Of a stretch of 64,000 bases of DNA, positions 1 through 58,295 are shown in pieces; within the stretch, counting starts at the first letter, position 1; each line of letters opens with the position of its first letter. The notes under the pieces were generated by a model. The model saw only the letters and a list, made by a program, of their open reading frames with translations. It was not told where the DNA came from and did no database searches. The stretch lies in IMG/VR virus record IMGVR_UViG_3300022841_000001, one strand, 5' to 3'. The DNA is from an uncultured virus (IMG/VR IMGVR_UViG_3300022841_000001) (Duplodnaviria; Heunggongvirae; Uroviricota; Caudoviricetes; Crassvirales). The position numbers were made by a program, and so were the translations under genes.

Positions 1-3000
1 GCAGTGTTGCTTAACAAGTTAAAAATGAACAATAAGGCAGCAATTGCTGCTACTAAGAAAATGGTTCAAGCCTTGTCTAGGTCAAAAACTTTAGACAAGA
101 ATACTAGAATAGCTTTAAAGAATTTTGCATCAAACTATGATACGGAGGTTCAGAACGAAGAAACTCTTGCTGAGATTATAGGAATGATTTCTGATAACTA
201 CTTAAAGTTAGAGCCTTCATCAAAAACAATTGTACGTAAGTGGATCGAAAAGATTGCTGATAAACTTGGTTTAGAAATAGGTCAATCTGAGAATGATGTA
301 GTGGATTTGCTTAATGTAATTGCCAGTAAAGTAATGACAGGTACTGTTATTAGTGATGGTGACTTATCTTTTTTAGATAATTTCGAAGGAGGTAAAGATG
401 TTAAAAATCCAATTAACGCATTAAAGAAAAGTATTGTTGGTAATTTTGAAATATCTTATACTGAAGACTCAAAAATTACAGACTACTTAAAGAATAAAAA
501 AAGTACAGAGAAAAGAATTACTCAACCTGTGGATTTGGAATTTATGAGAGGATTAAGTTCCGCTCTTCAGTCTCCGGACGATATGATGGTTGGTCAACTT
601 AAATACAAGGGTAAAGTTATTTTTGAAGGACAAGGCGGTATATTTTTTGTAACAAAGTTTGGTGCAGTATGGGCGTCTGGTGACGTAAAAACAGCAAAAA
701 CTTTGGCAGACATGATAAATAGAAGTGTCAAAGAGAATGGAGGAAAAAGAGGTTTTTTAACTTTAACAAAAGGAACTGATGCAAAATTAGTTAGTAGTGC
801 TTCTGGTGTCAACTCTACTTTAGCTATACTTGAAACAATGCTTGACGAAGGGTTGATTACACCAAGCGCTTTTAGGTCTGCTATTTCCACTACTGTCAGT
901 AAGGCTGGAGGTAAAATAAACTTAAGACAAAGTGCGAAGGATTTAAAAACAGACGTTGATAAGTATTTTTCTGATTCAACTACAAGTACTTTTGCAAAGA
1001 GAGGAGTTGTTGTAAATAATATAGTTACTGAATTAGCTAAATCATTAAAAGCAGATAAGGCAGCTAAGGTAAAAATAATTGAGTTCTTAGGTGGAGATAC
1101 TTCTAAAGGTCTTGGTGCTGGTGTTACAGCTAAATCACAATCATTAGTGGATTTAATAGCAAAGGTTGTTGGCGAAAAGCTCGTGAAAGGACTTAATACT
1201 GGAGATGTTTATGCTGTTATAGAAGTTGAAGGTGAGGTCGAAGCTGTCAAGGGAGACCATAAATCATACAAGGGGTTTATAAAACAAAAGAACGGAAATC
1301 CACCAATACTACATCTTATTCAAAAGAGAGAACATGGTCGTGAATACATTACAAGAGATTCAGGAAAAGTTTATACCGGCCCTGCTGTAGCAACAAATGA
1401 ATTTGTAACATATAATCTTTCAAAAAATATTAACTCAAAAAACGAGTTAACTCTTAGAAAGCAAAAAACAATAAAAGACAATGGAAAACCAACAACAAAA
1501 GAAGGAAACAGAAAATTCAATGAGCCACTACAGGACGCAACAACAATTGCGAATAGAGTTGCAGAGAGAACGGGCATTAATTATGAAGAAGCTACAAGAA
1601 TCGAAAAACTAGATATTGACAGGGCTAGGGAGATTGCTCAAATTTTTGAACAAACAGAACCAAACCCAAACGATAAAGATGTTAAAGAATCTTACGAAGC
1701 TTTAATTGATGAGACTATAGTTCAGTATGAAGAAATACTAGACGGTGGTTACTTGATTGAAATAAATAATGATGAGCCTTACCTGAACTCTAATAAGATG
1801 ATTGATGACTTACGTCAAAAGAAAAATATGAGAATATTTTCTACTGAGGCAGGTTTTGGTGATGGGAAAATAACTGATGCGGAGAGAGCAGCAAATCCAT
1901 TATTAGCAAAGACAAAATTCAAAGATAAAAACGGAGTGCCATTATTAGCTAATGACATCTTTAGGTTTGTTCACGACTTTTTTGGACATGCGAAGATGGG
2001 TAATGGTTTTGGGCCTATTGGTGAAGAAAATGCCTGGAACGTACACTCTAGAATGTACACTGAATTAGCAAGGGGTGCAATGACAACTGAAACTAGGGGT
2101 CAAAACTCTTGGGTTAATTTTTCAGGAGCAAATAAAGATGCATTTATATTAAGAGATGCCGCTAGAAAACTTAGAAAAGAAGGAAGGTTTGAAGAAGCTT
2201 TAGCAAAAGTAGATGAGGCTTATGATTTAATGCGCTTTGCTGATCAAAAAGTGATGTTAATGCCTAAAGTTTATACACTTACTGATTCAGAAATTTCTAA
2301 TACACCTGAAATAAGAAAGCAAAAAGAAGCTGCTGAGAAGCTTGGTATTCTTTATAAGATGAATACAAAAGGATTTATGCCGTCAACTATTCCACTGGGG
2401 CCTCTACAACAATCGGCTAAAAAACTTGGATTAAGAGTTGAGCGAGCATTGTTTAGAGAGGGTTATAATAAAGGTAAGGTTGCAGGTTACTATTTTTCTA
2501 ATGGAATTACTAGCAACGGTAAACCTAGATTCTATAATCCTCGTGTACCAGGAGCAAGAAAGCAAAAGTCTATGAGCGATATTGGCTTAGTAAATAAAGA
2601 CCTTGTTTCAGTTATAAGAATTGGTAGAGAAAATAATATTAAAGACAACACAATAGTAGATTACTTAAAACGTAAAGCTGGGTTTTTAATGAGTGAAATT
2701 AAACCATTAATGAGTTTAAGTGATTACACTCTTGAGAACTTCCCATCTAGCTTCGGTAATATTGAAGGTGGTTTACAGAAGGGTATGATTCTTTTTGATA
2801 GGTTATATAATTTAAAGACTAATCTATATGAAAACAATCTCACAAAGGTTGGTCAAAAAATTACTGAAATAAATGACAAAATAGAATTATTAACTATTCA
2901 GGATGAAAATTCTACTGAGTTAAAAAATACTGAGAAAATAGCAAAACTAAAATCTTCTTTGAAAAAAGTTGAAAAAGAAGCTAGAAAATCAGGGGATAAA

Positions 3001-6000
3001 TTCTACAAGTTTACAACTCAAGAAATAAATAATAAAATTATTGAAGCTTTAGAAAACTCTAAGGAATATAAAGATGCTTCAAATAAAGGAGCCTACAGCA
3101 CTCAGCAAGCAAAAATGATGTCTCAGATGATGAATGCATTTGAAGGCCCTGTGATGCGAGGAGATGCCGCAGCTAAGATAAAAATGGCAAGGCAAATACT
3201 TAGGGAAAGAACTAGAGGTACGAAAGAATTACAAAAAGTAAAAAGAGATTTAAGAAACTTTATTAGAGTAGCACTTCCGAAATTTGTATTTGCTAAGCCT
3301 GAAGTAATTGAATTAATTAATACCATAACAAATGCTAACCTAGATAATATTGAAAATTTAAAGGTTGAGGTTTTAGAGTTTGTAAATAAGAGAACCAATA
3401 TAGAGCTAACAAAACAGATATCTAAAATTTTAGATGGAAAATATGATGACGTTCAATCAGGTCGTAGAAAAGGTTATAAGGTTGATGAGATTACTAGAAA
3501 AAGATTGACGTTTATAAAAGATCTTATTAAAGGTATCAATACTAAAAGCGGTTTTGAAGAGATTACAAATCTTGGTCAAGAGTTTCAGGATAGAATCGAT
3601 AAGTTAGAAAAATCTACATTACAGACTCCTGCAAATCGATCTGAGATAGCGGATTTAAACATAGCTTTAAACTTTATAAATGCACAGCTTTCAGAAGAGA
3701 ACTCTATTGAAAAAACAAGTGAACTTCAGGATGTTGCTGCAAACTTAATTGACCTAGTGAATATAGGTAAATCAACACTAGAGGCTTCTCTAAGAGCTAA
3801 GCATATGGAGTATATTGATTCGTTTCAAAAAGCTTTCTATGAGATTACTGGTAAAAAAGTAAAGGTGTATGTGCCTAATCCTGAATACAATGAGCTACAA
3901 CCAGAGAGTAATAAGAATACAAGGCTTATAAAAAATCCTGAACACGAGGATAATATGAGGGACTTTAAAATGATATCTGATGCCAAGAAAAGTAGGGTAA
4001 CCAATAGAGCGAAAGCATTCTTTTCAAGTATGACAGAAGGGGCTGTTGCTTTTGTTATTGGCCATAATGATTTAGTTGGTTTGATGTCTAAGATTGGTAA
4101 AATGCCTGGCGAAATATTCGGAGGAGACCTACAAGATATGGTGTCCAATAAAATAGACGACTCTACAAATGATTATAAGTCTAGAAAAATGGCCACTACC
4201 CTTGTTATAAATAATAAATTAGAAGAAGTTTACGGTAAGAAATGGAGGGCTAAAGGTCAAAAAGATAGTAAATCTTATCCAACTGGTATACTATTACATA
4301 CAGGTGTGGCGATTGCTGATTTAAGTCAGAATCAAATGGGTTACTTAGTTAACCAGTACAAAGACCCAGCAAACAAACCTTCATTTAAAAATAAATATGG
4401 AGAAGACTACGTTCGTATAATGGCTGAAATGGAATCTAAATTAAATGATGAAGTTGCAGAAATTGGTAGATGGCAGATTGAAGAATTTTTTCCATCTCTA
4501 TATGAGGGATACAATGATGTGTATAAAAAAGTATACAGAACATCGATGCCTTGGAATGAGCATTATGCTGGTAGAATTTACAGAGAAGGTCGACAAGACA
4601 AGGAAGTTCCAAGCATACTATCTCAAACAGAGGGAGCATACAAAGGTTTTGCTAGTCCTGCATCCACAAAAGAAAGAGTATCTAATAAGCTTGCCATTAA
4701 AGACATGGATCAAATGGCGGCAATGATGACGTATGTTAATGATATGAATTATTTTGCTGGTTATGGCGAGAACTTAAATGACATAGCTAAAATTTTTAGT
4801 AACGATGATATCGTAAATGCTATTACTAGTCAGTACGGAAAAGGCCCGATGAAGAGTATTGATACGATGATTCAGAAACTTTCAAACAGAGGTGTTCAAA
4901 AGGAATACGGTATGGAGTGGATTAATAATGTGACGTCCGCTTTTGTTATTGGTAGACTTGCTATTAACCCGACTATTTTTATAAAACAGTTAACTTCCGC
5001 ACCAGCATACGCTGTAAATATTGGTTTCAGAAACTGGATGAAGCAGGCCGCTATGGGTATACCTGAAGTACGGTCTAACTGGAAAGAAATATCTGAAAAT
5101 TCTATATACATACAAGATAGATATGGCTCTTCTATATTAAGAACTCTTGAAACTTATGCTCCAGCAAAAGTAGAAAATTTAATTCCTACTCAAACTATGG
5201 GTAGTATTATAGATACCCTTATGTACTTAGTAAAACAAGGTGATAAAGGAGCAATTGTTGTTGGAGGTATACCTAATTACGCACACTACAAGGCTGAATA
5301 TAAAAAATCAAATCCAGTAGCAACTGAGCAAGAGGTTATTGATTATGCAATTAAGAAGTTTGAGAGAGACACTAAAAGATCTCAGCAGTCAAGTGACCTG
5401 CAGGATAAGGATCAATTTCAAACTGGTAACCCATTATCTAGAACCTTTAATATGTTCCAGACATCTGTTAAGCAGTACTTAAGAAAAGAGATGACCACGA
5501 CTAGGAATCTTTACAGAAAACTAAAAAGTGGAGGTAAAGAAGGTAAGGGAACTTACTGGGAAAACCTTAAGACATTGACAATGTATCACTCTGTTTTGCC
5601 TGTAATTTTTCAATATATTTCTGCTGGTCTTCCGGGAGTCTTAGCACCTTGGGAAGATGAGGATGAGAACGACTTAATTAGAGCTGCAACTTTGGGTAAT
5701 ATAAATGGTTTGTTTATTATAGGTGAAATGTTTAGTGCTTTTGGAGATTTTATGACCGACAAGCCTTGGACTGGAGACGAGACTACTATTCCAGTACTAA
5801 GTATTGGTCTTAAGTTTTTTGCTGAGTTAAATAAAGGAAACCAATACAATGTAACTCAGTTTGACAAGAATGGTGACCAGAGAACACCGGAGTCAGTAGC
5901 TGAAAGTATAGCTGGACAGCAAGCAGTATACAAGAAAGCTTTCTTTAATCTTGCAAATGCAGGACTACCGGTTGCTCAACTTGATAGACTGGTTAAAAAT

Positions 6001-6297
6001 GCTGATAAGATTATGGAAGGTAATATGACTGCAGAGGAGACTATATTAAGAGCTTTACAATTTTCTGACTATGCAATAACTACTGAAGAGTCAAGACAAA
6101 AGGCTAAAGAGAAGCCTAAAAAAGCTAGAGTATTAACATTAAAGCAGTTAGAGAAATACAACCCTGAAGCTTTTGAAAGAAAGATGGAAATTAAGGATAA
6201 GATTAAAAATTCAGATATGTATCTTAAAAAACAAGAGTTAAAGAGGATGCAAAAAGAGCGAAGGGAAGCTCAACTTGAAAAGTATTATAATAGATAA
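1..6297 (+). CDS. C-terminal part of a giant virion/ejection (polyvalent-type) protein; 5' end outside the window
   Basis: Frame open from base 1 for >2090 aa. EETLAE segment near the start resembles the end of a zincin-like domain. An internal FRFVHDFFGH...GEENAW...TETRGQNSWVNF domain is present, RKQK recurs three times, and the C-terminal half is long and helical. Confidence 0.75.
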   Translation, partial: AVLLNKLKMNNKAAIAATKKMVQALSRSKTLDKNTRIALKNFASNYDTEVQNEETLAEIIGMISDNYLKLEPSSKTIVRKWIEKIADKLGLEIGQSENDVVDLLNVIASKVMTGTVISDGDLSFLDNFEGGKDVKNPINALKKSIVGNFEISYTEDSKITDYLKNKKSTEKRITQPVDLEFMRGLSSALQSPDDMMVGQLKYKGKVIFEGQGGIFFVTKFGAVWASGDVKTAKTLADMINRSVKENGGKRGFLTLTKGTDAKLVSSASGVNSTLAILETMLDEGLITPSAFRSAISTTVSKAGGKINLRQSAKDLKTDVDKYFSDSTTSTFAKRGVVVNNIVTELAKSLKADKAAKVKIIEFLGGDTSKGLGAGVTAKSQSLVDLIAKVVGEKLVKGLNTGDVYAVIEVEGEVEAVKGDHKSYKGFIKQKNGNPPILHLIQKREHGREYITRDSGKVYTGPAVATNEFVTYNLSKNINSKNELTLRKQKTIKDNGKPTTKEGNRKFNEPLQDATTIANRVAERTGINYEEATRIEKLDIDRAREIAQIFEQTEPNPNDKDVKESYEALIDETIVQYEEILDGGYLIEINNDEPYLNSNKMIDDLRQKKNMRIFSTEAGFGDGKITDAERAANPLLAKTKFKDKNGVPLLANDIFRFVHDFFGHAKMGNGFGPIGEENAWNVHSRMYTELARGAMTTETRGQNSWVNFSGANKDAFILRDAARKLRKEGRFEEALAKVDEAYDLMRFADQKVMLMPKVYTLTDSEISNTPEIRKQKEAAEKLGILYKMNTKGFMPSTIPLGPLQQSAKKLGLRVERALFREGYNKGKVAGYYFSNGITSNGKPRFYNPRVPGARKQKSMSDIGLVNKDLVSVIRIGRENNIKDNTIVDYLKRKAGFLMSEIKPLMSLSDYTLENFPSSFGNIEGGLQKGMILFDRLYNLKTNLYENNLTKVGQKITEINDKIELLTIQDENSTELKNTEKIAKLKSSLKKVEKEARKSGDKFYKFTTQEINNKIIEALENSKEYKDASNKGAYSTQQAKMMSQMMNAFEGPVMRGDAAAKIKMARQILRERTRGTKELQKVKRDLRNFIRVALPKFVFAKPEVIELINTITNANLDNIENLKVEVLEFVNKRTNIELTKQISKILDGKYDDVQSGRRKGYKVDEITRKRLTFIKDLIKGINTKSGFEEITNLGQEFQDRIDKLEKSTLQTPANRSEIADLNIALNFINAQLSEENSIEKTSELQDVAANLIDLVNIGKSTLEASLRAKHMEYIDSFQKAFYEITGKKVKVYVPNPEYNELQPESNKNTRLIKNPEHEDNMRDFKMISDAKKSRVTNRAKAFFSSMTEGAVAFVIGHNDLVGLMSKIGKMPGEIFGGDLQDMVSNKIDDSTNDYKSRKMATTLVINNKLEEVYGKKWRAKGQKDSKSYPTGILLHTGVAIADLSQNQMGYLVNQYKDPANKPSFKNKYGEDYVRIMAEMESKLNDEVAEIGRWQIEEFFPSLYEGYNDVYKKVYRTSMPWNEHYAGRIYREGRQDKEVPSILSQTEGAYKGFASPASTKERVSNKLAIKDMDQMAAMMTYVNDMNYFAGYGENLNDIAKIFSNDDIVNAITSQYGKGPMKSIDTMIQKLSNRGVQKEYGMEWINNVTSAFVIGRLAINPTIFIKQLTSAPAYAVNIGFRNWMKQAAMGIPEVRSNWKEISENSIYIQDRYGSSILRTLETYAPAKVENLIPTQTMGSIIDTLMYLVKQGDKGAIVVGGIPNYAHYKAEYKKSNPVATEQEVIDYAIKKFERDTKRSQQSSDLQDKDQFQTGNPLSRTFNMFQTSVKQYLRKEMTTTRNLYRKLKSGGKEGKGTYWENLKTLTMYHSVLPVIFQYISAGLPGVLAPWEDEDENDLIRAATLGNINGLFIIGEMFSAFGDFMTDKPWTGDETTIPVLSIGLKFFAELNKGNQYNVTQFDKNGDQRTPESVAESIAGQQAVYKKAFFNLANAGLPVAQLDRLVKNADKIMEGNMTAEETILRALQFSDYAITTEESRQKAKEKPKKARVLTLKQLEKYNPEAFERKMEIKDKIKNSDMYLKKQELKRMQKERREAQLEKYYNR

Positions 6298-15914: not shown

Positions 15915-15935
15915 TGTATTATTGATTTGTATCAC

Positions 15936-15962
15936 AAAAACCCCCACACTTTCGTATGGAGG
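15936..15962 (-). terminator. Intrinsic terminator or attenuator
   Basis: CCTCCATAC-GAAA-GTGTGGGGG-TTTTT: 9-bp stem with two G-U pairs, GNRA loop and U tract. Confidence 0.8.
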
Positions 15963-15969
15963 CGGTTGC

Positions 15970-15992
15970 TTGAGAATCAACTACAATTCAAC
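15970..15992 (-). ncRNA. Candidate antisense seed hairpin in a 3' UTR, complementary to the early-gene initiation motif
   Basis: GAAUU-GUAGUU-GAUUC hairpin; AAUUGUAGUUGAUU is complementary to AAUYAACUACAAU upstream of several early start codons. Confidence 0.45.
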
Positions 15993-16154
15993 TTATATTC
16001 CTAGTGGATATTCATCCTCGTCCTCTTCTTCACTGGTAGTTGTATCCTGAGTTGAGTTACTATTACTTTGCTCATTCAGGTCTATGCTCATTGCTTGAAG
16101 AGCCTTGTTTGCTGGGTTGAGTCCTATGAAAAACTCCTTTAAATTGTCGTGCAT
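15993..16154 (-). CDS. 53-aa acidic protein (not in ORF track)
   Basis: MHDNLKEFFIGLNPANKALQAMSIDLNEQSNSNSTQDTTTSEEEDEDEYPLGI directly downstream of a promoter. Confidence 0.6.
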   Translation of the reverse strand: MHDNLKEFFIGLNPANKALQAMSIDLNEQSNSNSTQDTTTSEEEDEDEYPLGI

Positions 16155-16186
16155 AATTTAGTTAAAATTTGATTATATTTCGTTCA

Positions 16187-16216
16187 CAAATATAGTATAA
16201 AATATACATAATACAA
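16187..16216 (-). promoter_or_regulatory. Bacteroidota sigma70-type promoter (middle/replication genes)
   Basis: TTG-N19-TATATTTG, matching the -33/-7 consensus TTG...TAnnTTTG. Confidence 0.8.
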
Positions 16217-16224
16217 GTATAACT

Positions 16225-16812
16225 CTATGAATTTATTTTATTAATAGCATCAACTAGCTCTTGAAGATGTCCTTTGGATGCATACTTATGCTCCTCTCGA
16301 ATCTGCTCAAGCTCTTCTTTTTCACACCCTTCATAGTTATATGATAGGTTTTCCATCCAGTTACTCACATCGCTTTCGTAGTAGTATTCGTGTGCCGTCA
16401 TTTCTCTATGTAAAACAATGCCTTTGTGACCAATAGAAACAAATCCTGCAAAATCCATACCTGATTCTTCATACTCCATTTCTGCAGTCAGTTTGTATTT
16501 CTTACAAATTGCCTCTATTAGTTTTATTGGTGGCGACCAAGCCGAATCTCCTGAGACAATCATATCCTCGTCCCTGAAATAATCTCTTTCGTGAATCTCA
16601 AAATCCCACCACTTCGTGCCATAGTCGTATGGCTCAGCCAACCTGACTGAAGCAAGCCAAGCCTTATTATCAATCTCTGACAAGTCCAGAACAAAATCTC
16701 CAAACTCTGTAAAATAATTGACGTCATCATACTTGTCAAATTTATCTTGTAACTTTCTTAGCGATTCGTTGCTCCCATCGAAGCACACGTAATTATAACA
16801 ATTGTTTGCCAT
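16225..16812 (-). CDS. DUF1281/YubB ferredoxin-like protein
   Basis: MANxCYN, YGTKW, DSAWSPP and YEESGMDFAG motifs. Confidence 0.75.
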   Translation of the reverse strand: MANNCYNYVCFDGSNESLRKLQDKFDKYDDVNYFTEFGDFVLDLSEIDNKAWLASVRLAEPYDYGTKWWDFEIHERDYFRDEDMIVSGDSAWSPPIKLIEAICKKYKLTAEMEYEESGMDFAGFVSIGHKGIVLHREMTAHEYYYESDVSNWMENLSYNYEGCEKEELEQIREEHKYASKGHLQELVDAINKINS

Positions 16813-16813
16813 C

Positions 16814-17275
16814 TTATTTGTTTTTAGTAACTATTAATTCAATCTCTTTATCTCTAATAACTAACCTATTTCCCTCCTCTAGCTCGTCTAAGGAATCTTT
16901 TATATCATCATAACTGTGACAGTCTTTAATAAAATAGAAGTCCATCAGGTACTCTATTGTATCGTATATGTCTAAATCTTCTTCAGTGTTCGTGTATGAC
17001 TTGTTTGCTATGTGTTCACCAGTCTGTTTGAATTTGACATCAAACGTTTCCTCGGTGCTTTTAAGTTCCATTAAGTTTTCTGAAATGTCACGTATTGCAA
17101 ACCAAACTGCATCCATTGTGCTTTCGCAGGTTAAAGCAACGTGTAAAATGCTTTCTGCCTGCTCCTTGGTACATTTGTAATTATCCTGCACATCTTTGAG
17201 ATGCCATAAACCCTCAACATAGTACCCTTTGCTTTCTAAAAATTTCTTTGCACTTTCTTCTGTAATTTCACTCAT
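16814..17275 (-). CDS. Hypothetical early protein (acidic)
   Basis: Start preceded by AACTACA. Confidence 0.75.
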   Translation of the reverse strand: MSEITEESAKKFLESKGYYVEGLWHLKDVQDNYKCTKEQAESILHVALTCESTMDAVWFAIRDISENLMELKSTEETFDVKFKQTGEHIANKSYTNTEEDLDIYDTIEYLMDFYFIKDCHSYDDIKDSLDELEEGNRLVIRDKEIELIVTKNK

Positions 17276-17307
17276 TGTAGTTAATTTAAATTATTGACTT
17301 ATTGTCG

Positions 17308-17348
17308 TGGATAGGGAGGAATCGAACCTCCCAAGCACCTTGCTACCC
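17308..17348 (-). ncRNA. Mini tRNA-like element 1 (acceptor stem plus T-arm, no anticodon arm)
   Basis: GGGTAG-CAAGGTGCTTG-GGAGG-TTCGATT-CCTCC-CTATCC-A. Confidence 0.8.
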
Positions 17349-17349
17349 T

Positions 17350-17541
17350 TTACTTTCTAGCTTTTGCTAGTGACCTATTGACTAAAGCAATCAAGTCATA
17401 CAAGTGATGTTTCTCATCACTTCCTATTCGCTGACTCCAAGAGAGCATACCTTTAAGGTCGTGTCTCAATTCATTCAGGTCGCCAACAATCATCTTCATA
17501 GTTCTATTGGTCTTATCTAACTCCGCCTTCACGTCCTGCAT
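17350..17541 (-). CDS. Hypothetical early protein
   Basis: Packed ORF. Confidence 0.65.
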   Translation of the reverse strand: MQDVKAELDKTNRTMKMIVGDLNELRHDLKGMLSWSQRIGSDEKHHLYDLIALVNRSLAKARK

Positions 17542-17544
17542 ACC

Positions 17545-17811
17545 TTAAGAATTTAGGTGGTTATTGTTTACTATGTAAATCTCAGTCTCTACGCTCTGCG
17601 TTGATGAGTTCCATTCCTGAATAATCAGGTCGTAGTTCAGGTGCTTTGCATTGCAGGAAACTAGCAGGTCGTTCAGTTCATCCATTTCAGTTAGACGGAA
17701 ACTTCTATCTGTTGGTATCCTATCTCTTACTCCTCTCCTATCGTCACAACGAAATTCGTAGTAAACCTTGTTACTTGATATTAACTCTAAAATACTTCTT
17801 GGTGTTGCCAT
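17545..17811 (-). CDS. Hypothetical early protein
   Basis: Packed ORF. Confidence 0.7.
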   Translation of the reverse strand: MATPRSILELISSNKVYYEFRCDDRRGVRDRIPTDRSFRLTEMDELNDLLVSCNAKHLNYDLIIQEWNSSTQSVETEIYIVNNNHLNS

Positions 17812-17813
17812 AA

Positions 17814-17930
17814 TTATCTGTTTTTTAACTCTGTTTGTAATTGGTCTACTAGCTCCCTAGCGACATCTAACTCCTTCGGCTCTAAATGAAATCCATTTAG
17901 TAATTGCGTTATTATTTGTAAATCTTTCAT
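17814..17930 (-). CDS. 38-aa hypothetical protein (start MKDLQII)
   Basis: ATG at 17930 follows the upstream stop; the longer track ORF overlaps its neighbour. Confidence 0.55.
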   Translation of the reverse strand: MKDLQIITQLLNGFHLEPKELDVARELVDQLQTELKNR

Positions 17931-17934
17931 AGTT

Positions 17935-18312
17935 TTATCCGTATATAACTTCGCCAAAAATAACACACTGCAATACGCAGTCTGCATCAAAAGCATCGTC
18001 TCGTTCATTAATAATATTAAACAATGTATCCGGGTCGACTTTCGGGACTCCGGTAAGAACACTTTCTAAAACTATTTTAGTGAAATCATCATCACCAGCC
18101 TCCTCGTCCACAAAAGACAATGAATTACCGTCAAGCAGGATTTGCATCAGGACATCTTCATAACACCCATCCATCACTTTATCTTTAGCTGATTTGTAGT
18201 CTTCCATTTCGTACACTAGTCCTATACCGTAATAATGCATCTGAGACAGTCCATTGCATAATGAAGTGTGAAATACTCCTAAAATTTCTTCTCTTGTTAA
18301 TTTGATTTCCAT
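17935..18312 (-). CDS. Hypothetical early protein
   Basis: C-terminal DAFDADCVLQCVIFGEVIYG pattern recognised from phage early proteins. Confidence 0.75.
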   Translation of the reverse strand: MEIKLTREEILGVFHTSLCNGLSQMHYYGIGLVYEMEDYKSAKDKVMDGCYEDVLMQILLDGNSLSFVDEEAGDDDFTKIVLESVLTGVPKVDPDTLFNIINERDDAFDADCVLQCVIFGEVIYG

Positions 18313-18319
18313 AATTTAT

Positions 18320-18727
18320 TTATAAGTGTGTTAAACATTGATTGCAAAACGAAAAATCGTCTTGGTTATGCGTGTTAATACTTCCACATTTGTGGCATTT
18401 GTGACCCTCTTCCATAGAGACATCACAGTAGTAATCTCTGTTGATTATCTCGATAGCTAGATGCTCGATATAAATATCACTCATACTCTGTTCCGTCTCT
18501 AGCCAAATGTCACCATCTCGCTCAAGTAAGAATCTCTGAATAATATTATCCTCGTTTATCTCTGTAGCTATTTCCTCTATAGCTTCAGTAGACTGGATGT
18601 TGTCCAAGGGCATTGTTTGGCTAGGCATTCTTACCCTTGTGCGCTCCCAAGCTCTTGCACTATGTATCAAAATGATGTTGTAAATTTCTCTATCAAAATA
18701 CAACCGTGTTTCTAAATCTATTTCCAT
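18320..18727 (-). CDS. Hypothetical protein with C-terminal Zn ribbon
   Basis: CHKC...CNQC. Confidence 0.7.
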   Translation of the reverse strand: MEIDLETRLYFDREIYNIILIHSARAWERTRVRMPSQTMPLDNIQSTEAIEEIATEINEDNIIQRFLLERDGDIWLETEQSMSDIYIEHLAIEIINRDYYCDVSMEEGHKCHKCGSINTHNQDDFSFCNQCLTHL

Positions 18728-18729
18728 AT

Positions 18730-18960
18730 CTAATTGTGTTTATTTTCCTGAGCATACTCATATAACGCATCCATAAAAGAGTCTTCTAGTAAGTCCATAT
18801 AGAATCTAGTAATATCCATTCCATCCAGCATAACACTGGTCACCTCTAATTCATCTTCAGGAGGTGCAAATCTGTCCTCGTCATTCCATTCGTAATCGTA
18901 TTCAATGATTAACTCGTATCCAAACGGCTCTCCTACTGTGTAAATTCCTTTTGTCTTCAT
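18730..18960 (-). CDS. Small acidic early protein
   Basis: Packed ORF, very acidic. Confidence 0.7.
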   Translation of the reverse strand: MKTKGIYTVGEPFGYELIIEYDYEWNDEDRFAPPEDELEVTSVMLDGMDITRFYMDLLEDSFMDALYEYAQENKHN

Positions 18961-18971
18961 ATCTATCTTTT

Positions 18972-19205
18972 TTAATGGTTAAACATATCTTCCCAGCCAT
19001 CTACTCCTTGTGATACTCCTCCAGCTCTGCTGGGGAATTCTCTTTGAATATAGTCTGTCACATAATACTCTTGGTCTGTAAATGACTCACTTAAATCTGT
19101 GCAGTACTCATCAGCATCTTCTCTTGTTGAAAATCCATCCTGATTCATCTCACCTTGTCCGTGGTTATTGACCCACATTACCTTGTACATTGTTGTTCTC
19201 TTCAT
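18972..19205 (-). CDS. Small acidic early protein
   Basis: Start preceded by AATCAACTACA. Confidence 0.7.
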   Translation of the reverse strand: MKRTTMYKVMWVNNHGQGEMNQDGFSTREDADEYCTDLSESFTDQEYYVTDYIQREFPSRAGGVSQGVDGWEDMFNH

Positions 19206-19242
19206 TGTAGTTGATTTTAATCTCTGCCAAAATCGGCATTGT

Positions 19243-19283
19243 TGCTGGAGGAGGAATCGAACCTCTTTACATCCAATCCAGCA
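19243..19283 (-). ncRNA. Mini tRNA-like element 2
   Basis: (T)GCTGGA-TTGGATGTAA-AGAGG-TTCGATT-CCTCC-TCCAGC-A. Confidence 0.8.
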
Positions 19284-19291
19284 TTGGGTAT

Positions 19292-19789
19292 TTACCCACC
19301 ATAATTACTATCTATCCAGTCACACAATATGTTCCTATTGTTATCGTCCAGCTCCATAAATAACTTGAAGAAGTTAAGTGTTCCACCAAAACTATTACTG
19401 GCGTTTAGACTCGTCCATTTAGAAGTTATGTGACCAGTCATATGCTCATTGTTTGACCAAACTTTCTGTATCCAGTCGTGAGGAAAATTGTTGGCGAAGT
19501 ACATAAATTTAATGATGTTGGAATTGCCTACAAAAACTGGCTCAACAACCTCAATCTCTTCAGACTCCCATTCTGTCCATAGGTATTCTTCGTTATTATA
19601 AGACTCATTTAGTAGGAATTCATCCGACAAAACCTCATCACCTTTTGATGTTATTTGTCTAGACTTAATCCATTGTATCAAGTCTGCTTCATATTTAAAT
19701 ATCTCGCCATCTTCACAAAGATATCCTTCAAAAATTCCTGCTCCAGTTGCGCTACACGTTCTTGGAAATACTACGTTTTGTTTTGTCAT
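19292..19789 (-). CDS. Hypothetical early protein
   Basis: 165-aa ORF, apparently two domains. Confidence 0.75.
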   Translation of the reverse strand: MTKQNVVFPRTCSATGAGIFEGYLCEDGEIFKYEADLIQWIKSRQITSKGDEVLSDEFLLNESYNNEEYLWTEWESEEIEVVEPVFVGNSNIIKFMYFANNFPHDWIQKVWSNNEHMTGHITSKWTSLNASNSFGGTLNFFKLFMELDDNNRNILCDWIDSNYGG

Positions 19790-19794
19790 AATTT

Positions 19795-19908
19795 CTATCT
19801 GTTTACTACGTTATAATTTGATGCTTTTGATGAACACTGGAAGCTTCCACAACTTGAAAACATTACCAATATAATTAACACTACTACTACTTTTAATTGT
19901 CTACTCAT
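19795..19908 (-). CDS. 37-aa lipoprotein (not in ORF track)
   Basis: MSRQLKVVVVLIILVMFSS|CGSFQCSSKASNYNVVNR: basic N-region, hydrophobic core, lipobox FSSC. Confidence 0.65.
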   Translation of the reverse strand: MSRQLKVVVVLIILVMFSSCGSFQCSSKASNYNVVNR

Positions 19909-19924
19909 TTTATCTATTTTTAAA

Positions 19925-20257
19925 TTAATATGCTGATGTTGCTCTTTTTTGAATGTTTTCAAATGTATCGTCCTCGTCTCTGTAATCCCTAGTTAAATTG
20001 TGGTAATACTTCATCAACTCTTTACCTATAGAGTCTAGCTCACCGAATCTGTCCACATACTGTAGTTGTAGCATTACATTAGATTCTTGAGACCTAATGG
20101 TATCATTCACCTGAATAGCTCCCATCATTCCACCACCTAAGTAGTTTTGATATGCCGACATTTTGTGACCCTTGAATCCTATTGATGTTAAACTAATTTC
20201 AACACCTCCACCTCTAGTTGAGGTTTCTTTTCTTACTGTCATTTTCTTAAAGTTCAT
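19925..20257 (-). CDS. Hypothetical early protein
   Basis: Start preceded by AACTACA; immediately downstream of hammerhead 1. Confidence 0.75.
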   Translation of the reverse strand: MNFKKMTVRKETSTRGGGVEISLTSIGFKGHKMSAYQNYLGGGMMGAIQVNDTIRSQESNVMLQLQYVDRFGELDSIGKELMKYYHNLTRDYRDEDDTFENIQKRATSAY

Positions 20258-20273
20258 TGTAGTTATAATTTAA

Positions 20274-20326
20274 GTTAATAACCACCATTGCTGGTGGTTT
20301 TCATCCTTCAGGAATCATCAGTTAAC
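20274..20326 (-). ncRNA. Type I hammerhead ribozyme 1
   Basis: GUUAA-CUGAUGA-UUCC UGAA GGAU-GAAA-ACCACCA GCAA UGGUGGU-UA-UUAAC; predicted cut after UUA, between 20279 and 20278. Confidence 0.9.
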
Positions 20327-20444
20327 CACTTACTGTTATTGTACCATTGGCGTAATGACTACATATTAATCCAGTTGGTAGTACTACCACCTTTACTTGT
20401 TTTGATTTAAAAATCGACTTTACTTTTCTTGCTATTAGTTTCAT
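20322..20444 (-). CDS. 40-aa basic protein (not in ORF track)
   Basis: MKLIARKVKSIFKSKQVKVVVLPTGLICSHYANGTITVSG; its stop codon lies in ribozyme stem I. Confidence 0.55.
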   Translation of the reverse strand: MKLIARKVKSIFKSKQVKVVVLPTGLICSHYANGTITVSG

Positions 20445-20445
20445 A

Positions 20446-21126
20446 TTATTCTAGTGTTTCTAATCTTTCGTTAACTTCTTTTAATGTGTATGTTTTTTCG
20501 CTATCTACGTAGTCTCTAAACTCTTCGATATAGCCTTCACTTATGTCTTGCCTCAGTTCGTAGTCGTCTTTATACTCAGACAGATACTCGTGAATTATTC
20601 CTTCAGAATGGTCGCCATATTTGAACAACTTAGCATCCGTGTATCCTCCTCTAGCATCTGCACCATTGTGTATCTGAATAAGAATATACTCCTCATCATT
20701 TATGGTTAGGTTAGAACCCTGAAGTATCTGAGACAAATCACTGTCACCGTTATAAGTGTTCCAGACTCTCTGCTCAATAACATCATTCTCAAAGGAGTTA
20801 ATGTGGTCAAATGCATTCCTGCTCACTCCGTAAGATTCACAGTCAGAATTCCAATCATCAGACTCTTCCTGAATCTCGTTAAACTCATCGCATAAATCAT
20901 CCAGCTGGAGGTTATTGGTTAGGTAATGAAACACAGATACTGTCCTCATTATATCACCTCTTTCCCAGTCGAATTCATAAACCTCCATTTCTTCATTGTT
21001 AAAATCCTCAATGGTCTTCTTTTGGTTTCTTTGCCAGCCTCTGCCTTCAGAAAATCCACTGTCACCCATCGCTTTACCAGTATTTTCGGTAAGCATTCCG
21101 TAAACTAATTTTTGTACTTGATTCAT
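20446..21126 (-). CDS. Hypothetical early protein (acidic)
   Basis: MLTENTG...DSG...RGWQRNQ, NTYNGDSDLSQILQ and QIHNGADARGGYTD segments. Confidence 0.8.
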   Translation of the reverse strand: MNQVQKLVYGMLTENTGKAMGDSGFSEGRGWQRNQKKTIEDFNNEEMEVYEFDWERGDIMRTVSVFHYLTNNLQLDDLCDEFNEIQEESDDWNSDCESYGVSRNAFDHINSFENDVIEQRVWNTYNGDSDLSQILQGSNLTINDEEYILIQIHNGADARGGYTDAKLFKYGDHSEGIIHEYLSEYKDDYELRQDISEGYIEEFRDYVDSEKTYTLKEVNERLETLE

Positions 21127-21147
21127 AATTGTAGTTAATTTAATTTA

Positions 21148-21200
21148 AGTTAATAGCCATTCGAAAATGGCTTTCATCCTTCAGGAATCGTCAGTTAACT
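21148..21200 (-). ncRNA. Type I hammerhead ribozyme 2
   Basis: AGUUAA-CUGACGA-UUCC UGAA GGAU-GAAA-GCCAUU UUCG AAUGGC-UA-UUAACU; predicted cut after CUA, between 21154 and 21153. Confidence 0.9.
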
Positions 21201-21405
21201 ATATTTTAAAGGTTAATACCTCGTTTATGTCATCAATTTCATTCTGAGTGAACAATATGAAATCAGAACCTATAGCCTGCTGGATGCAGTTTAGGTAAGC
21301 TCTTTTTAATTCATTTTCTGTAGGGTAATACTCATTCAGAACCTCATCTTCCTTCCATCTTTCAAACATCTTAGTGTTTGCATCTAATAATTCTTTAAAA
21401 GTCAT
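21199..21405 (-). CDS. Hypothetical early protein
   Basis: ATG at 21405; stop overlaps hammerhead 2 stem I. Confidence 0.65.
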   Translation of the reverse strand: MTFKELLDANTKMFERWKEDEVLNEYYPTENELKRAYLNCIQQAIGSDFILFTQNEIDDINEVLTFKI

Positions 21406-21426
21406 AATCAATAATTTAAGTTAATA

Positions 21427-21660
21427 TTATATTCTTGGTACAAAGTGTTCGTCTTTAGACATCAGCCCAACAAAATCGTGCATCACGTCATCCTGAGAAA
21501 ATAAAGATTCATCATCAAATAGCCTTTCAGCCCATTCAGGATTGTCCATTATAAGTATTGCACAAACGCCTTCCCTCGTTAATCGCTGGATGTCTGCAAA
21601 GTGGTCTAGTATCCCATCAGGAATAAGATTGTAAAGTAATTCTTCTTTTAATTCATTCAT
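21427..21660 (-). CDS. Small acidic early protein
   Basis: Start preceded by AACTACAATT. Confidence 0.7.
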   Translation of the reverse strand: MNELKEELLYNLIPDGILDHFADIQRLTREGVCAILIMDNPEWAERLFDDESLFSQDDVMHDFVGLMSKDEHFVPRI

Positions 21661-21673
21661 AATTGTAGTTGTT

Positions 21674-21940
21674 TTAGTATAATTCAGAGTTTTCGATTAA
21701 TTTAACTTGGTATGCTGGTAGCTCATTGCAGTAATCTTGATACTTATCAAACGAGTCTTCACATTTCTTGTTTATCCTGCGCCATTCACTGGTCTCATTC
21801 TCCTGCTGACCCTCAATCTCATCACGCAGTATGTTGAACGCATTATACTTCTCCAGCCACTGGATGGCTCTATTTAAATTTACCTGATTCTTCTTTGCTT
21901 TAGCTATCATCTTAGTTGTTTTTATGTGATTCATATGCAA
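21674..21940 (-). CDS. Hypothetical early protein (start uncertain)
   Basis: Packed ORF. Confidence 0.65.
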   Translation of the reverse strand: MHMNHIKTTKMIAKAKKNQVNLNRAIQWLEKYNAFNILRDEIEGQQENETSEWRRINKKCEDSFDKYQDYCNELPAYQVKLIENSELY

Positions 21941-22169
21941 TCATATCGTAAGCTGGTGAGTAATACTTCACGGTGCCATTGATGGAATTAATCTTTTCTA
22001 TTTTTGCCTCCAGCTCTATCTTTTTTCGGTAATCACTGTGCAGTATCTTGCTTGCATCTTCCGTAGTATAGATGATTGCTGACACTAGATTTGATATCAA
22101 ATCACTGCCGTTATAATACGTTAATTTGTCCTCCGTTAATACGTTCATTACTGTTGCTGATGTCTTCAT
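21912..22169 (-). CDS. Hypothetical early protein
   Basis: Packed ORF. Confidence 0.65.
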   Translation of the reverse strand: MKTSATVMNVLTEDKLTYYNGSDLISNLVSAIIYTTEDASKILHSDYRKKIELEAKIEKINSINGTVKYYSPAYDMIAYESHKNN

Positions 22170-22171
22170 AA

Positions 22172-22426
22172 TTATCTTAGTTTATTAATTAATATTCCCT
22201 CTAATCCTATTGCTACTAACGTGAATACAGTTATCATCTGAATTTTCGTCCATACACTGTTGTAAATTTGGTCTACAGTCATATAGCTCTCACTGTGTAT
22301 CTGAATGTCCAGCAACAATAGATTGTCTATCTCTATTATTCTACTGTATAAATCAAATCCTAACACAAATCCTGATACTATAAATACTCCTAACCCAATC
22401 GCAATCACTATTCCTAAAATTCTCAT
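22172..22426 (-). CDS. Early membrane protein (2 TM)
   Basis: Hydrophobic N- and C-terminal segments. Confidence 0.7.
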   Translation of the reverse strand: MRILGIVIAIGLGVFIVSGFVLGFDLYSRIIEIDNLLLLDIQIHSESYMTVDQIYNSVWTKIQMITVFTLVAIGLEGILINKLR

Positions 22427-22458
22427 ATCAATCTATTTTTAATTATTGTTACTATTAG

Positions 22459-22498
22459 TAAGAGTGCAGGAATCGAACCTGCATTAACCATTACTCTT
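22459..22498 (-). ncRNA. Mini tRNA-like element 3
   Basis: AAGAGT-AATGGTTAAT-GCAGG-TTCGATT-CCTGC-ACTCTT-A. Confidence 0.85.
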
Positions 22499-22509
22499 GG
22501 AAATTCATA

Positions 22510-22920
22510 CTACTTGATATAATCCTCCAGCTCCTTCCAGTCAGCTTGTGCATCTACCTTTCTTTCCTGCTCACGTACATCATCAATCAACTTCCCAACA
22601 GCTCGAACAATGTCAGTAGCACAAGATGATGAAGACATAACTGGATTACCAGCTACAGTAGTTACCCTGAGTGACCAAGTCGAGTCACCATATCGCATCA
22701 TATCAAGCGCATTCTTCTCGCTATTCTTTGTGAATTGCATAATGTATTTGTCACTGGTGATTATTACTTTCCACATTGCCTTTGTTCCCTGATTGTCTGT
22801 GGTCTCTATCACTGCTCCATCACATAGCATTCTATATGCTAGCTTTACATAGTCATATTCCATTTGGGTCATCTTTGATGCATTGAATTTCGGCATTACT
22901 ACTTTGATTGTGTTTCTCAT
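22510..22920 (-). CDS. Hypothetical early protein
   Basis: 136-aa ATG ORF. Confidence 0.75.
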   Translation of the reverse strand: MRNTIKVVMPKFNASKMTQMEYDYVKLAYRMLCDGAVIETTDNQGTKAMWKVIITSDKYIMQFTKNSEKNALDMMRYGDSTWSLRVTTVAGNPVMSSSSCATDIVRAVGKLIDDVREQERKVDAQADWKELEDYIK

Positions 22921-22922
22921 AA

Positions 22923-23027
22923 TTATTGGTTTCTTTTGTTATCGGTTAAAGTTATTATTATTAGTACTATTAAGGTGATAAATATCACTGGTATCATAAT
23001 GTTGGTAAACGTGTTAAGCATAATCAT
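22923..23027 (-). CDS. 34-aa single-TM peptide, probable first early gene (not in ORF track)
   Basis: MIMLNTFTNIMIPVIFITLIVLIIITLTDNKRNQ with an A/T-rich leader. Confidence 0.55.
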   Translation of the reverse strand: MIMLNTFTNIMIPVIFITLIVLIIITLTDNKRNQ

Positions 23028-23041
23028 AGTTATTAAATTAG

Positions 23042-23090
23042 TCACCAGTGTAGGTATTGCTCCTATAAAATGCTCACTGCATCACTGGTG
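23042..23090 (-). ncRNA. Three-way-junction, tRNA-like element 4
   Basis: CACCAGTG-[ATGC AGTGA GCAT]-TTTA-[TAGG AGCAATA CCTA]-CACTGGTG-A. Confidence 0.55.
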
Positions 23091-23520
23091 TTCTGTTCTC
23101 GCTATTCGGGGAGTCTTTATACTTTACCCAAGCAAAATTCATACATTACTTCAAAGCCCATTTAATCAAATCCGCTACTAGATGATTAAGATTCATTAAC
23201 CCCATCTACAGATGGTTAAACACTTGGTTATCGTGAAGGAGACCATTAGAAAGGCATTACCGTGACTGGCTTTAATCCTAATGGCTGACAGTGTTTTATG
23301 CTTTGATATCACTGTACTATATGGATTGACTTACTAAAGACGCTTGGTCTACACTACTTCGCTTGATAGATATGGATAGAGATACAATCCCGCATTTAAG
23401 CAGTTGGCTGATTGTGAGCAGGTTAAGAAGATATAGTTAAACCCTTACTTGAAGTAAGGTGATGTAACTGCCTGATTCTCAGTAGTTTAAGTCAATATGT
23501 CAATGAACTGGCGCCTAAGC
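23091..23520 (-). ncRNA. Long structured non-coding leader of the early transcript
   Basis: No credible ORF; nested complementary segments ATTGACTTA/TAAGTCAAT, GCAGTT/AACTGC, CCTTACT/AGTAAGG, AAACACT/AGTGTTT and CCATTAG/CTAATGG. Confidence 0.5.
23493..23508 (-). promoter_or_regulatory. boxA-like antitermination motif
   Basis: GTTCATTGACATATTG about 17 nt downstream of the putative early promoter; resembles rrn boxA. Confidence 0.55.
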
Positions 23521-23525
23521 GAGTA

Positions 23526-23533
23526 CAATTATA
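23526..23533 (-). promoter_or_regulatory. Putative early promoter -7 element
   Basis: cgTATAATTG (one mismatch to TAnnTTTG) just upstream of the boxA-like motif; no clear -33 element. Confidence 0.4.
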
Positions 23534-57476: not shown

Positions 57477-58295
57477 ATGTCTTTAAATTGTAGTAATAGT
57501 ACAGTAACGTACAGTGAAAGTGCAAAAGGATTTCCTTCTTTTTACAGCTTTATACCAGAGTATATGATTGGTATGAATAGTTTTTTCTATAGCTTTAAAG
57601 AAGGTAACCTGTGGAGACACAATACAAATCCAGTGCGTAACAATTTTTATGGAGAGCAACATAAATCTACAATAACAAGTGTATTTAATCCTCAGCCCAC
57701 ACAAGCAATAAAATTATTTAAAACGTTATCGTATGAATCAACAACAACTGTAGATAATCAGGCAAATGCTGCCTGGAGTTGTACTTATTTAAAAACTGAT
57801 TTAACGGATGGTAATCCTGGATCTATGTTATCAACTTATTTTCAACAAAAAGAAGGGGAGTGGTTTAGCTACATAAGAACAAATGAATCAACGATAAACT
57901 TTAAAGCTAGGTCAGCAAATGGTATAGGAAACTGTACTGCTATTAGTGGTTTATCTGATGATATATTATTAGAATTCAACGTTTCAGTTGGCTCTATTCT
58001 TAGTATTGGTGATTTAGTTTATGCTGCAAATATAGAGAACGGTTCTGTAGTTGGAATTCCTATAGCTGCTGGTATTGTAATTTCAAAAAACTCCAGCAGT
58101 ATTTCTATAAATGCAACTCCTACACAGAACTATACAGTTCCTACTGTTGGTCAGTACATAATGTATATAAAAAATGCTGTTGCAGAGTCTACTGGAGCTA
58201 GAGGTTACTACTTAGAATTTAAGTTAGAAAATAATTCCTCAAATCCAGTTGAATTGTTTTCTGTGGGCAGTAGCGTCATGAAAAGTAATCCATAG
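57477..58295 (+). CDS. Probable C-terminal part of the nozzle/stabilisation protein, encoded separately
   Basis: TVTYSE...GFPSFYSFIPE, NNFYG, KLFKTLSYES, KEGEWF, GARGYY, ELFSV. Confidence 0.7.
   Translation: MSLNCSNSTVTYSESAKGFPSFYSFIPEYMIGMNSFFYSFKEGNLWRHNTNPVRNNFYGEQHKSTITSVFNPQPTQAIKLFKTLSYESTTTVDNQANAAWSCTYLKTDLTDGNPGSMLSTYFQQKEGEWFSYIRTNESTINFKARSANGIGNCTAISGLSDDILLEFNVSVGSILSIGDLVYAANIENGSVVGIPIAAGIVISKNSSSISINATPTQNYTVPTVGQYIMYIKNAVAESTGARGYYLEFKLENNSSNPVELFSVGSSVMKSNP

Follow-up and report, generated by a model that had tools for sequence, protein, structure and literature searches.

We analysed a stretch of DNA of 64,000 nucleotides (nt) from an uncultured virus (IMG/VR record IMGVR_UViG_3300022841_000001), referred to below as the window, and in particular an array of small genes on its minus strand that carries two hammerhead ribozyme motifs and three short tRNA-like elements (mini-tRNAs) between its genes. 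The array runs from 23045 to 15993, comprises about two dozen small open reading frames (ORFs) and is closed by a strong terminator at 15963-15940, with replication genes coming next; that it is an early operon is suggested by this position. A C/A-rich tag lies across the start codons of genes behind these elements, and its antisense lies in a predicted short transcript at the end of the array, in a seed that is invariant across the related phages compared. The reading that we favour, and which we consider somewhat better than an even bet on the sequence evidence, is that the RNA of the operon would be cut at the five signals and that the tagged starts would be silenced by the antisense seed.

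In the proposed course of events, the array would be transcribed as polycistronic RNA that is then severed at the five RNA signals it contains. The two type I hammerheads would cleave themselves; by established hammerhead chemistry, the upstream piece then ends in a 2',3'-cyclic phosphate and the downstream piece starts with a 5'-OH. In the type I geometry, the folded ribozyme, ending in the cyclic phosphate, would remain on the upstream message as a cap at its 3' end, and the downstream message would begin with a 5'-OH at UUAACUUAAAUUA. The three mini-tRNAs would be mistaken for tRNA precursors by the RNase P and RNase Z of the host and would be excised. The first gene behind most of the signals would present the tag across its start codon, and a G/U-rich stretch, GAAUUGUAGUUGAUU, in the 3' untranslated region (UTR) of the small transcript most likely pairs in trans with the tagged starts, such that translation of the tagged genes would be lowered as the small transcript accumulates. 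Repressing small RNAs (sRNAs) are usually built in this way, with a conserved single-stranded stretch directly before a terminator and several targets at start sites. Cleavage, the enzymes involved, the direction of the effect (repression) and its timing are the parts of this scheme that we infer.

The hammerheads and mini-tRNAs that a first-pass annotation had located in the array held up in motif counts, folds and shuffles. Hammerhead 1 (21148..21200, minus strand; predicted cut 21154/21153) and hammerhead 2 (20273..20327, minus strand; predicted cut 20279/20278), both of type I, score 79.5 and 83 bits with the hammerhead model, respectively, and are its only matches across the 64 kb window. 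Every core base is present in both (C3-U4-G5-A6-N7-G8-A9, G12-A13-A14, A15.1-U16.1 and H17 not G). In hammerhead 1, the core reads CUGAcGA...GAA with A15.1-U16.1 and with A as H17, and stem I is overlapped by the stop codon TAG of the upstream gene. The two copies (53-55 nt) share core and stem II and differ only in N7, in the outermost pair of stem I (A-U versus G.U), and in stem III with its loop. In the last of these, GCCAUU-UUCG-AAUGGC of hammerhead 1 is replaced by ACCACCA-GCAA-UGGUGGU in hammerhead 2, with pairing fully compensated. The type I motif scanner counted 2 in the window compared to a mean of 0.017 per shuffle, and none of 300 shuffles had two or more. Among 32 sequences of the family, 98.4% of cells were paired and 14 of the 15 pairs were altered on both sides; these counts, like those given for the mini-tRNAs below, were taken from alignments fitted to the models, which favours pairing. 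None of 500 shuffles was paired as highly, slid controls were 33-43% paired, and A15.1-U16.1 was kept in 28/28 members of the family alignment.

The mini-tRNAs consist of an acceptor stem of 6-7 base pairs (bp), a linker of 10-11 nt bearing GG, and a 5 bp T-arm stacked on the acceptor. Mini-tRNA 1 (22458..22498, minus strand; 57.2 bits) has the acceptor AAGAGT/ACTCTT, the linker AATGGTTAAT and the T-arm GCAGG-TTCGATT-CCTGC, followed by AC. Mini-tRNA 2 (19241..19283, minus strand; 57.8 bits) has a 7 bp acceptor, TGCTGGA/TCCAGCA, and a first T-arm pair that is A.C, and mini-tRNA 3 (17307..17348, minus strand) has the acceptor GGGTAG/CTATCC and the T-arm GGAGG/CCTCC. The loop and inner stem of each T-arm form the motif GGTTCGATTCC, which occurs exactly three times in the window, always on the minus strand within the array (at 22479, 19263 and 17328). 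With one mismatch allowed, there are 5 matches versus 0.33 expected, and 0 of 100 shuffles reach 5. Across the 64 kb window, the mini-tRNA model matches only these three elements. In the family alignment (15 sequences), 97.9% of cells were paired and both sides were altered in 8 of 11 pairs, including all 6 acceptor pairs; the pair G53-C61 is present in 14/14, and an A directly after the acceptor stem, at the discriminator position, is invariant in 11/11. The elements obey the GGTTCRANYCC rule of t-elements, tRNA-like folds of plant mitochondria, and this match to t-element requirements (PMC1920247) makes RNase P and RNase Z the likely cutters.

A canonical tRNA gene with D and anticodon arms was considered for these sites and rejected, with merely 10-11 nt between acceptor and T-arm. 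The mini-tRNAs are not tRNA genes, since ARAGORN called 0 tRNA genes in the window, Rfam at gathering scores called nothing in it, and the tRNA-clan matches to the mini-tRNAs are weak (tRNA 18.5 bits versus a gathering score of 29, tRNA-Sec 21.7 versus 47). Behind mini-tRNA 2, a small hairpin, GCCGATTTTGGC, was also seen (19205-19240, minus strand), with a counterpart at 3397-3436 of L134; in L134 and L156, a T-run stands behind the matching hairpin, so that it resembles a weak terminator or attenuator.

All elements lie between genes on the sense strand, as the first-pass annotation had described. By our measurement, they end 15-37 nt upstream of the next ATG, the mini-tRNAs 33-37 nt. In order to compare them with relatives, metagenome contigs were scanned with the hammerhead core, which returned three loci. 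One (L007) is the same phage as the window, one (L009) is a relative 77-89% identical to it, and one (L008) is a different phage of 67.8 kb. L009 retains mini-tRNA 1 and orthologs of both hammerheads at the same junctions. Its stem III is altered with pairing kept, and the acceptor of its mini-tRNA 1 is compensated on both sides, AAGAGT/ACTCTT becoming TAGGGT/ACCCTA by two both-sided changes. L008 carries three type I hammerheads about 430 nt apart between small genes; in one of them, stem II is compensated (UUCG/CGAU). Downstream of a TATATTTG box, L008 has a type III hammerhead whose stem II is the same, and it also has an ortholog of mini-tRNA 3 with compensated acceptor and T stems. Hammerhead copies were also found in L134, L135, L136 and L137. 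Orthologs of mini-tRNA 2 stand behind homologs of the 165-aa (amino acid) gene in L134, L156 and L163, and those of mini-tRNA 3 (L008, L134, L142, L156) show compensatory changes in T stem and acceptor. In sequencing run X12, a C>T change at 17346, among the 40 differences listed out of 283, converts a G.U pair of mini-tRNA 3 to A-U. The first-pass annotation had proposed conservation and covariation in relatives as a check, and the compensatory changes bear this out for the elements. The comparison supports hammerheads and mini-tRNAs alike as genuine RNA structures that are under selection. Hammerheads and mini-tRNAs are found together in one operon in the window, L009, L008, L134/L162, L137 and L021. 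The phages collection gave no match to the 7.8 kb region or to the 76-nt seed module, and no relatives were found through three other early proteins.

Viral contigs contained 0 matches to the exact hammerhead core and at least 125 stretches with a looser core. Among the matches listed, stems I and III were complete in 117 of 136 core matches, where the pattern did not require stems, and the looser-core matches were mostly type III hammerheads 15-40 nt upstream of an ATG. A large type III family (L010-L133) has the same U.U-closed stem II (GAUUC-N6-GAUGAAA) 15-40 nt before starts, and none of its members were called at Rfam gathering scores in the 10 loci tested. Two further loci (L011, 5260-7799; L015, 5383-6876) hold four to six consecutive type I hammerheads a few hundred bases apart, rows that look like punctuation of a whole operon.

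The tag AACTACAAT occurs 7 times in the window where 1.6 are expected. It is C/A-rich with the core AACUACAAU, and spans the start codon of five minus-strand genes (21660, 21126, 20257, 19205, 17275), the last four of which had been listed by the first-pass annotation and the first of which is new. The corresponding seed-target sites, all on the minus strand, lie at 21661..21671 (start of a 77-aa gene; 11 nt complement; no processing element upstream), 21127..21136 (226-aa gene, behind hammerhead 1), 20256..20264 (110-aa gene, behind hammerhead 2), 19204..19216 (a 77-aa gene behind mini-tRNA 2; 13 nt perfect complement with a duplex of -19.3 kcal/mol) and 17274..17282 (153-aa gene, behind mini-tRNA 3). 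There are 12 seed-complementary sites in the window, and the 5 on start codons are all within the operon. Predicted seed duplexes at the five tagged starts range from -13 to -19 kcal/mol, and the other 17 starts do no better than -11 kcal/mol.

In order to have a measure across the family, we counted targets of at least 9 nt complement in the 119.8 kb upstream of the seed in 40 loci. There were 60 sites on the same strand, 38 of them at start codons, compared to 11 on the opposite strand and 5 in the reversed control. Defining a start as behind an element if it lies at most 60 nt downstream of a hammerhead or mini-tRNA, we found a target on 18 of 25 distinct starts behind elements versus 7 of 186 other starts; by element, 11 of 11 hammerhead starts and 7 of 14 mini-tRNA starts have one. 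By these counts, the tag is strongly tied to genes directly behind elements.

The antisense of the tag was said by the first-pass annotation to lie on a short downstream transcript, and this was borne out. The seed TTGAATTGTAGTTGATT is at 15975..15991 (minus strand) in a 3' UTR, with the antisense copy of AACTACAAT at 15979-15987. Upstream of it are a gene for a small acidic protein (15993..16154, minus strand; 53 aa, ending ...EYPLGI) and a putative -7 promoter box, TATATTTG (16187..16194, minus strand), which is the only intergenic match within the operon, on this strand, to TAnnTTTG, the Bacteroidota -7 promoter consensus. Downstream is an intrinsic terminator (15933..15963, minus strand) with a 10 bp stem, a GAAA loop and a T-run; seed and terminator together fold with a z-score of -4.45. 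The seed 17-mer is identical and equally placed in L134, after the stop codon of a small acidic ORF with PLGI at its end and before the terminator, where flanks differ and proteins are about 37-63% identical.

In order to avoid selection on the seed itself, we collected seed contexts by an anchor outside it (the 3' half of the terminator and downstream bases). This search gave 48 stretches with 18 distinct 75-nt contexts, the window included, and the 13-nt seed core ATTGTAGTTGATT was present in 18/18. The upstream flank, the spacer of 8-11 nt, and the stem and loop of the terminator all vary around it, the stem with compensation. Homologous small ORFs ending PLGI stand upstream of the seed in the relatives, and a TAnnTTT[GA] box, judged by sequence match only, lies upstream of the small ORF in 10/10 printed contexts. 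These results support the antisense stretch as a conserved module that has a promoter-like box and a terminator of its own. Between the acidic ORF and the seed, some relatives have a second small membrane ORF. An opposite-strand start site as the explanation of the seed was rejected, as reading by eye gave just a frame of 17 codons that lacks an ATG.

The start-site consensus of L008 differs from that of the window, and at the spot of the seed L008 has a putative small RNA with promoter and terminator whose 5' part is antisense to that consensus. Covariation of seed and tag between phages of the window type and L008/L135 is no more than suggestive. The stretch in L008 (14697-14840) has a TATATTTG box followed by about 115 nt of non-coding sequence that ends in a long terminator stem; its 5' end is TTCATAATGTTA.

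Several observations weigh against the proposed cut-and-silence scheme. More distant phages found through the 226-aa protein (37-66% identity; L001-L006 and the complete genomes G003 and G004) are without the elements, as is GenBank MW202828.1. Neither window hammerhead is called by Rfam at gathering scores; the best match of hammerhead 1 is RAGATH-1-hammerhead with 12.3 bits versus a gathering score of 56.3, and hammerhead 2 has none. The sister copy found in L048, whose stem II is closed by G-C, does pass for Rfam Hammerhead_1 (RF00163) with 35.9 bits versus 34. Stem II of the window hammerheads has merely 3 bp and is U.U-closed, and no loop-loop or pseudoknot complement for a tertiary contact of stems I and II was seen in the flanks by eye. 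For the mini-tRNAs, acceptor and T stems total 11-12 bp, and the bases at -1/+1 showed no RNase P signature. Mini-tRNA 1 in the window, and 7 of 14 mini-tRNAs in the family, have no target behind them. The Fisher value for the tag-to-element association (3.5e-15) overstates independence and is not an independent-sample probability, because the loci are related; the bias of the fitted alignments towards pairing belongs here too. Covariation of seed and target cannot appear within the family because the seed never varies, and own-versus-cross pairing in L008 (4/16 for its own, 3/23 for that of the window) is a weak difference.

Among other explanations, the elements may be real and yet act singly, as gene-linked cassette parts that stabilise messages or serve as recombination repeats, with no coordinated system and with the antisense as an unrelated 3' UTR feature. 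The first-pass annotation had proposed that self-cleaving and nuclease-recruiting cassettes are interchangeable at orthologous positions. This did not hold, as 0 of 20 ortholog groups with members behind an element carry both kinds and each group is tied to one type. Presence and absence are frequent (in the 165-aa family, 12 members have the hammerhead and 16 do not), and the elements seem to travel with their downstream gene. Compared to L134, the window also has an extra block of the 226-aa gene, a 40-aa gene, hammerhead 2 and the 110-aa gene, bounded by two hammerhead copies that agree in 89% of columns. The tag directly adjoins the hammerhead repeat unit (TATTAACTTAAATTA..AACTACAAT), therefore both may simply be copied together. 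However, the tag also stands in unrelated flanks behind mini-tRNAs 2 and 3, and at 21660 without an upstream element. Independent cassettes likewise do not account for the retention of the seed in every outside-anchor context despite drifting flanks, nor for the enrichment of targets on the sense strand and at start codons. We consider this explanation unlikely.

We regard as quite unlikely that the mini-tRNAs serve as another kind of tRNA mimic, such as a protective 3' or 5' cap, a CCA-adding or tagging site, or a decoy for elbow-recognising factors or defences. The T-loop, the GG of the linker and the invariant discriminator A point to selection for a tRNA-like shape and not for cutting as such. 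However, the mini-tRNAs are always intergenic and on the sense strand, 33-37 nt from the next start, and they share operon slots with self-cleaving ribozymes in several lineages. The lack of an anticodon arm argues against decoys for anticodon nucleases, and t-elements of the same build direct RNase P and RNase Z cuts in plant mitochondria, according to the available part of PMC1920247. Finally, that AACTACAAT is a translation-start enhancer or a protein-binding site whose complement near the terminator does not pair is highly improbable: related phages do have similar A/C-rich contexts before ATG (ACAATTATG, AACACATTATG) without the exact tag, and the tag itself comes in two registers relative to ATG (...ACAATG and ...ACAATTATG), but such a site leaves unexplained the complement of 13-17 nt directly upstream of the terminator that is kept in every relative found by the outside anchor.

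Cutting of the operon RNA followed by antisense silencing of its tagged starts would share traits with several known systems. The sRNAs of the GcvB type present a single-stranded G/U-rich seed to C/A-rich elements at many translation start regions, and the array likewise has one G/U-rich stretch matching C/A-rich start regions. Unlike GcvB, the seed of the window is phage-encoded, lies in the 3' UTR of a protein gene, and has targets tied to processing elements; the usual start signals of the host phylum also differ from those of hosts of GcvB-type sRNAs. The C4 antisense RNA of phages P1 and P7, reportedly described by Citron and Schuster in 1990 and by Hartmann and colleagues in 1995, is said to be a same-strand antisense covering a ribosome-binding region and to be matured by RNase P. 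Within a single immunity operon, C4 reportedly precedes its targets and has two target sites, whereas the window has its seed in a 3' UTR that closes the array, with matches to five starts; RNase P is said to mature the regulator in C4, whereas here it is proposed to cut the message of the targets. In phage T7, early RNA is processed by RNase III, and in T4, RegB and RegA control early messages. As in these phages, a polycistronic early RNA would be cut into units and early translation would later be curbed at starts; unlike in the scheme proposed here, T7 and T4 rely on proteins, as nucleases or repressors, and on different sites. The window showed no hairpins of the RNase III type, and Pfam identified no RegA or RegB homologs among its 45 ORFs.

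Tandem hammerheads in polycistronic RNAs of prophages and phages were reported by Perreault et al. 2011 (PMC3088659), who also describe a halovirus early transcript with a mapped 5' end at most three nucleotides from the ribozyme cleavage site. As in those systems, several hammerheads flank genes in one transcript and a very short stem II is possible. Unlike them, the window copies have U.U at 10.1/11.1 and are uncalled by Rfam 15, share an operon with mini-tRNAs, and have an antisense-matched start tag behind them. Forner et al. 2007 (PMC1920247) describe a tRNA-punctuation model for plant mitochondrial t-elements, with mRNA ends made by RNase P and RNase Z cuts. The mini-tRNAs resemble t-elements in being tRNA-like folds between coding regions with the same T-arm rule. 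In contrast to t-elements, they keep only acceptor stem and T-arm (about 40 nt) with a short GG linker and lie in a bacteriophage operon.

The first-pass annotation knew of no description of the combination. Neither punctuation by phage mini-tRNAs nor the full combination was found in the searchable literature, which leaves subscription journals outside its coverage, but tandem hammerheads in phage-type operons have been published (PMC3088659). Its overall reading likewise stands in part: the elements, their link to the tag and the seed module remain, and antitermination, a structured leader, a tRNA-like junction and interchangeability do not.

What is new here is a link, tested across a phage family, that joins processing elements to a start-site tag and to an invariant antisense seed. 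If the scheme is true, phages run a single programme of expression with ribozymes that cut themselves, mimicry of tRNAs and an antisense seed, which would give natural hammerheads and phage mini-tRNAs, whose roles have been largely unknown so far, a concrete and testable job. A broader idea, plausible to us yet rather short of an even chance, is that a family of marine and salt-lake Bacteroidota phages has a regulon made of RNA parts. Ribozymes and mini-tRNAs would cut the early message into commonly tagged units and the invariant seed of one transcript would read all the tags, providing a timed brake on chosen early proteins without a dedicated phage protein. The set of parts is compact (cutters of about 55 nt and about 40 nt, a tag of 9-13 nt and a seed of 15 nt) and could be tested in Flavobacteriia. 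A hammerhead subfamily with U.U-closed stem II and a mini-tRNA family, both uncalled by the current Rfam library, are a further outcome.

At the upstream end of the operon, a putative -7 promoter box, TATAATTG (23525..23532, minus strand), has one mismatch to the TAnnTTTG consensus and aligns with TATATTTG or TATATTCG upstream of the leader in relatives. A sigma-70 scan of the region gave 37 sites versus a mean of 40 in shuffles, no better than chance. A conserved 5' leader block follows (23279..23508, minus strand), with 73-76% identity to L134, L185, L202 and L177 and near-invariant sub-blocks. The non-coding stretch 23515-22921 (minus strand, about 590 nt) is about 97% identical to that of L009, and the flanking coding DNA is 77-89% identical. 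The leader had been called structured by the first-pass annotation; it is conserved, yet its minimum free energy (MFE) has a z-score of +1.27, no better than shuffles, and the RNAalifold covariation term of its consensus fold is +0.83, with no covariation support. The conserved stretch 22921-23515 could possibly be a leader RNA, a replication origin or another DNA site. The boxA-like motif reported at 23493 is simply part of the conserved block. Lambda-type boxA/nut antitermination found no support, as this stretch mismatches the boxA consensus by eye and Pfam on the 45 ORFs found no antiterminator families.

The supposed tRNA-like junction at 23042 proved to be a stable three-way-junction hairpin (23040..23088, minus strand; MFE -16.2 kcal/mol, z-score -3.21, 1 of 200 shuffles as good), without a T-loop motif and unmatched by the mini-tRNA model R2. 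Comparison of this hairpin is uninformative because it is identical in L009. Directly behind it, a possible hydrophobic mini-protein of 34 aa (MIMLNTFTNIMIPVIFITLIVLIIITL...) was seen at 22923-23028 (minus strand); L009 has lost the first ATG of this frame but keeps the second.

Judged by its genes, the window is a tailed phage of a kind infecting Flavobacteriia. It encodes terminase, portal, tail fibre, GroEL, primase/helicase, Sak annealing protein and exonuclease; no phage RNA repair or nuclease genes were found by Pfam among the 45 ORFs. The primase has 60% identity to that of GenBank MW202828.1, and its first 285 residues are 43% identical to Flavobacterium phages. Matching DNA is present in sequencing runs labelled salt lake metagenome. 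At 1-6297 (plus strand), an ORF of more than 2,000 aa without a Pfam match runs past the window start, and a crAss-type 'muzzle' C-terminal domain (PF25729) was seen at 57477-58295 (plus strand). The phage may be related to crAss-like podoviruses.

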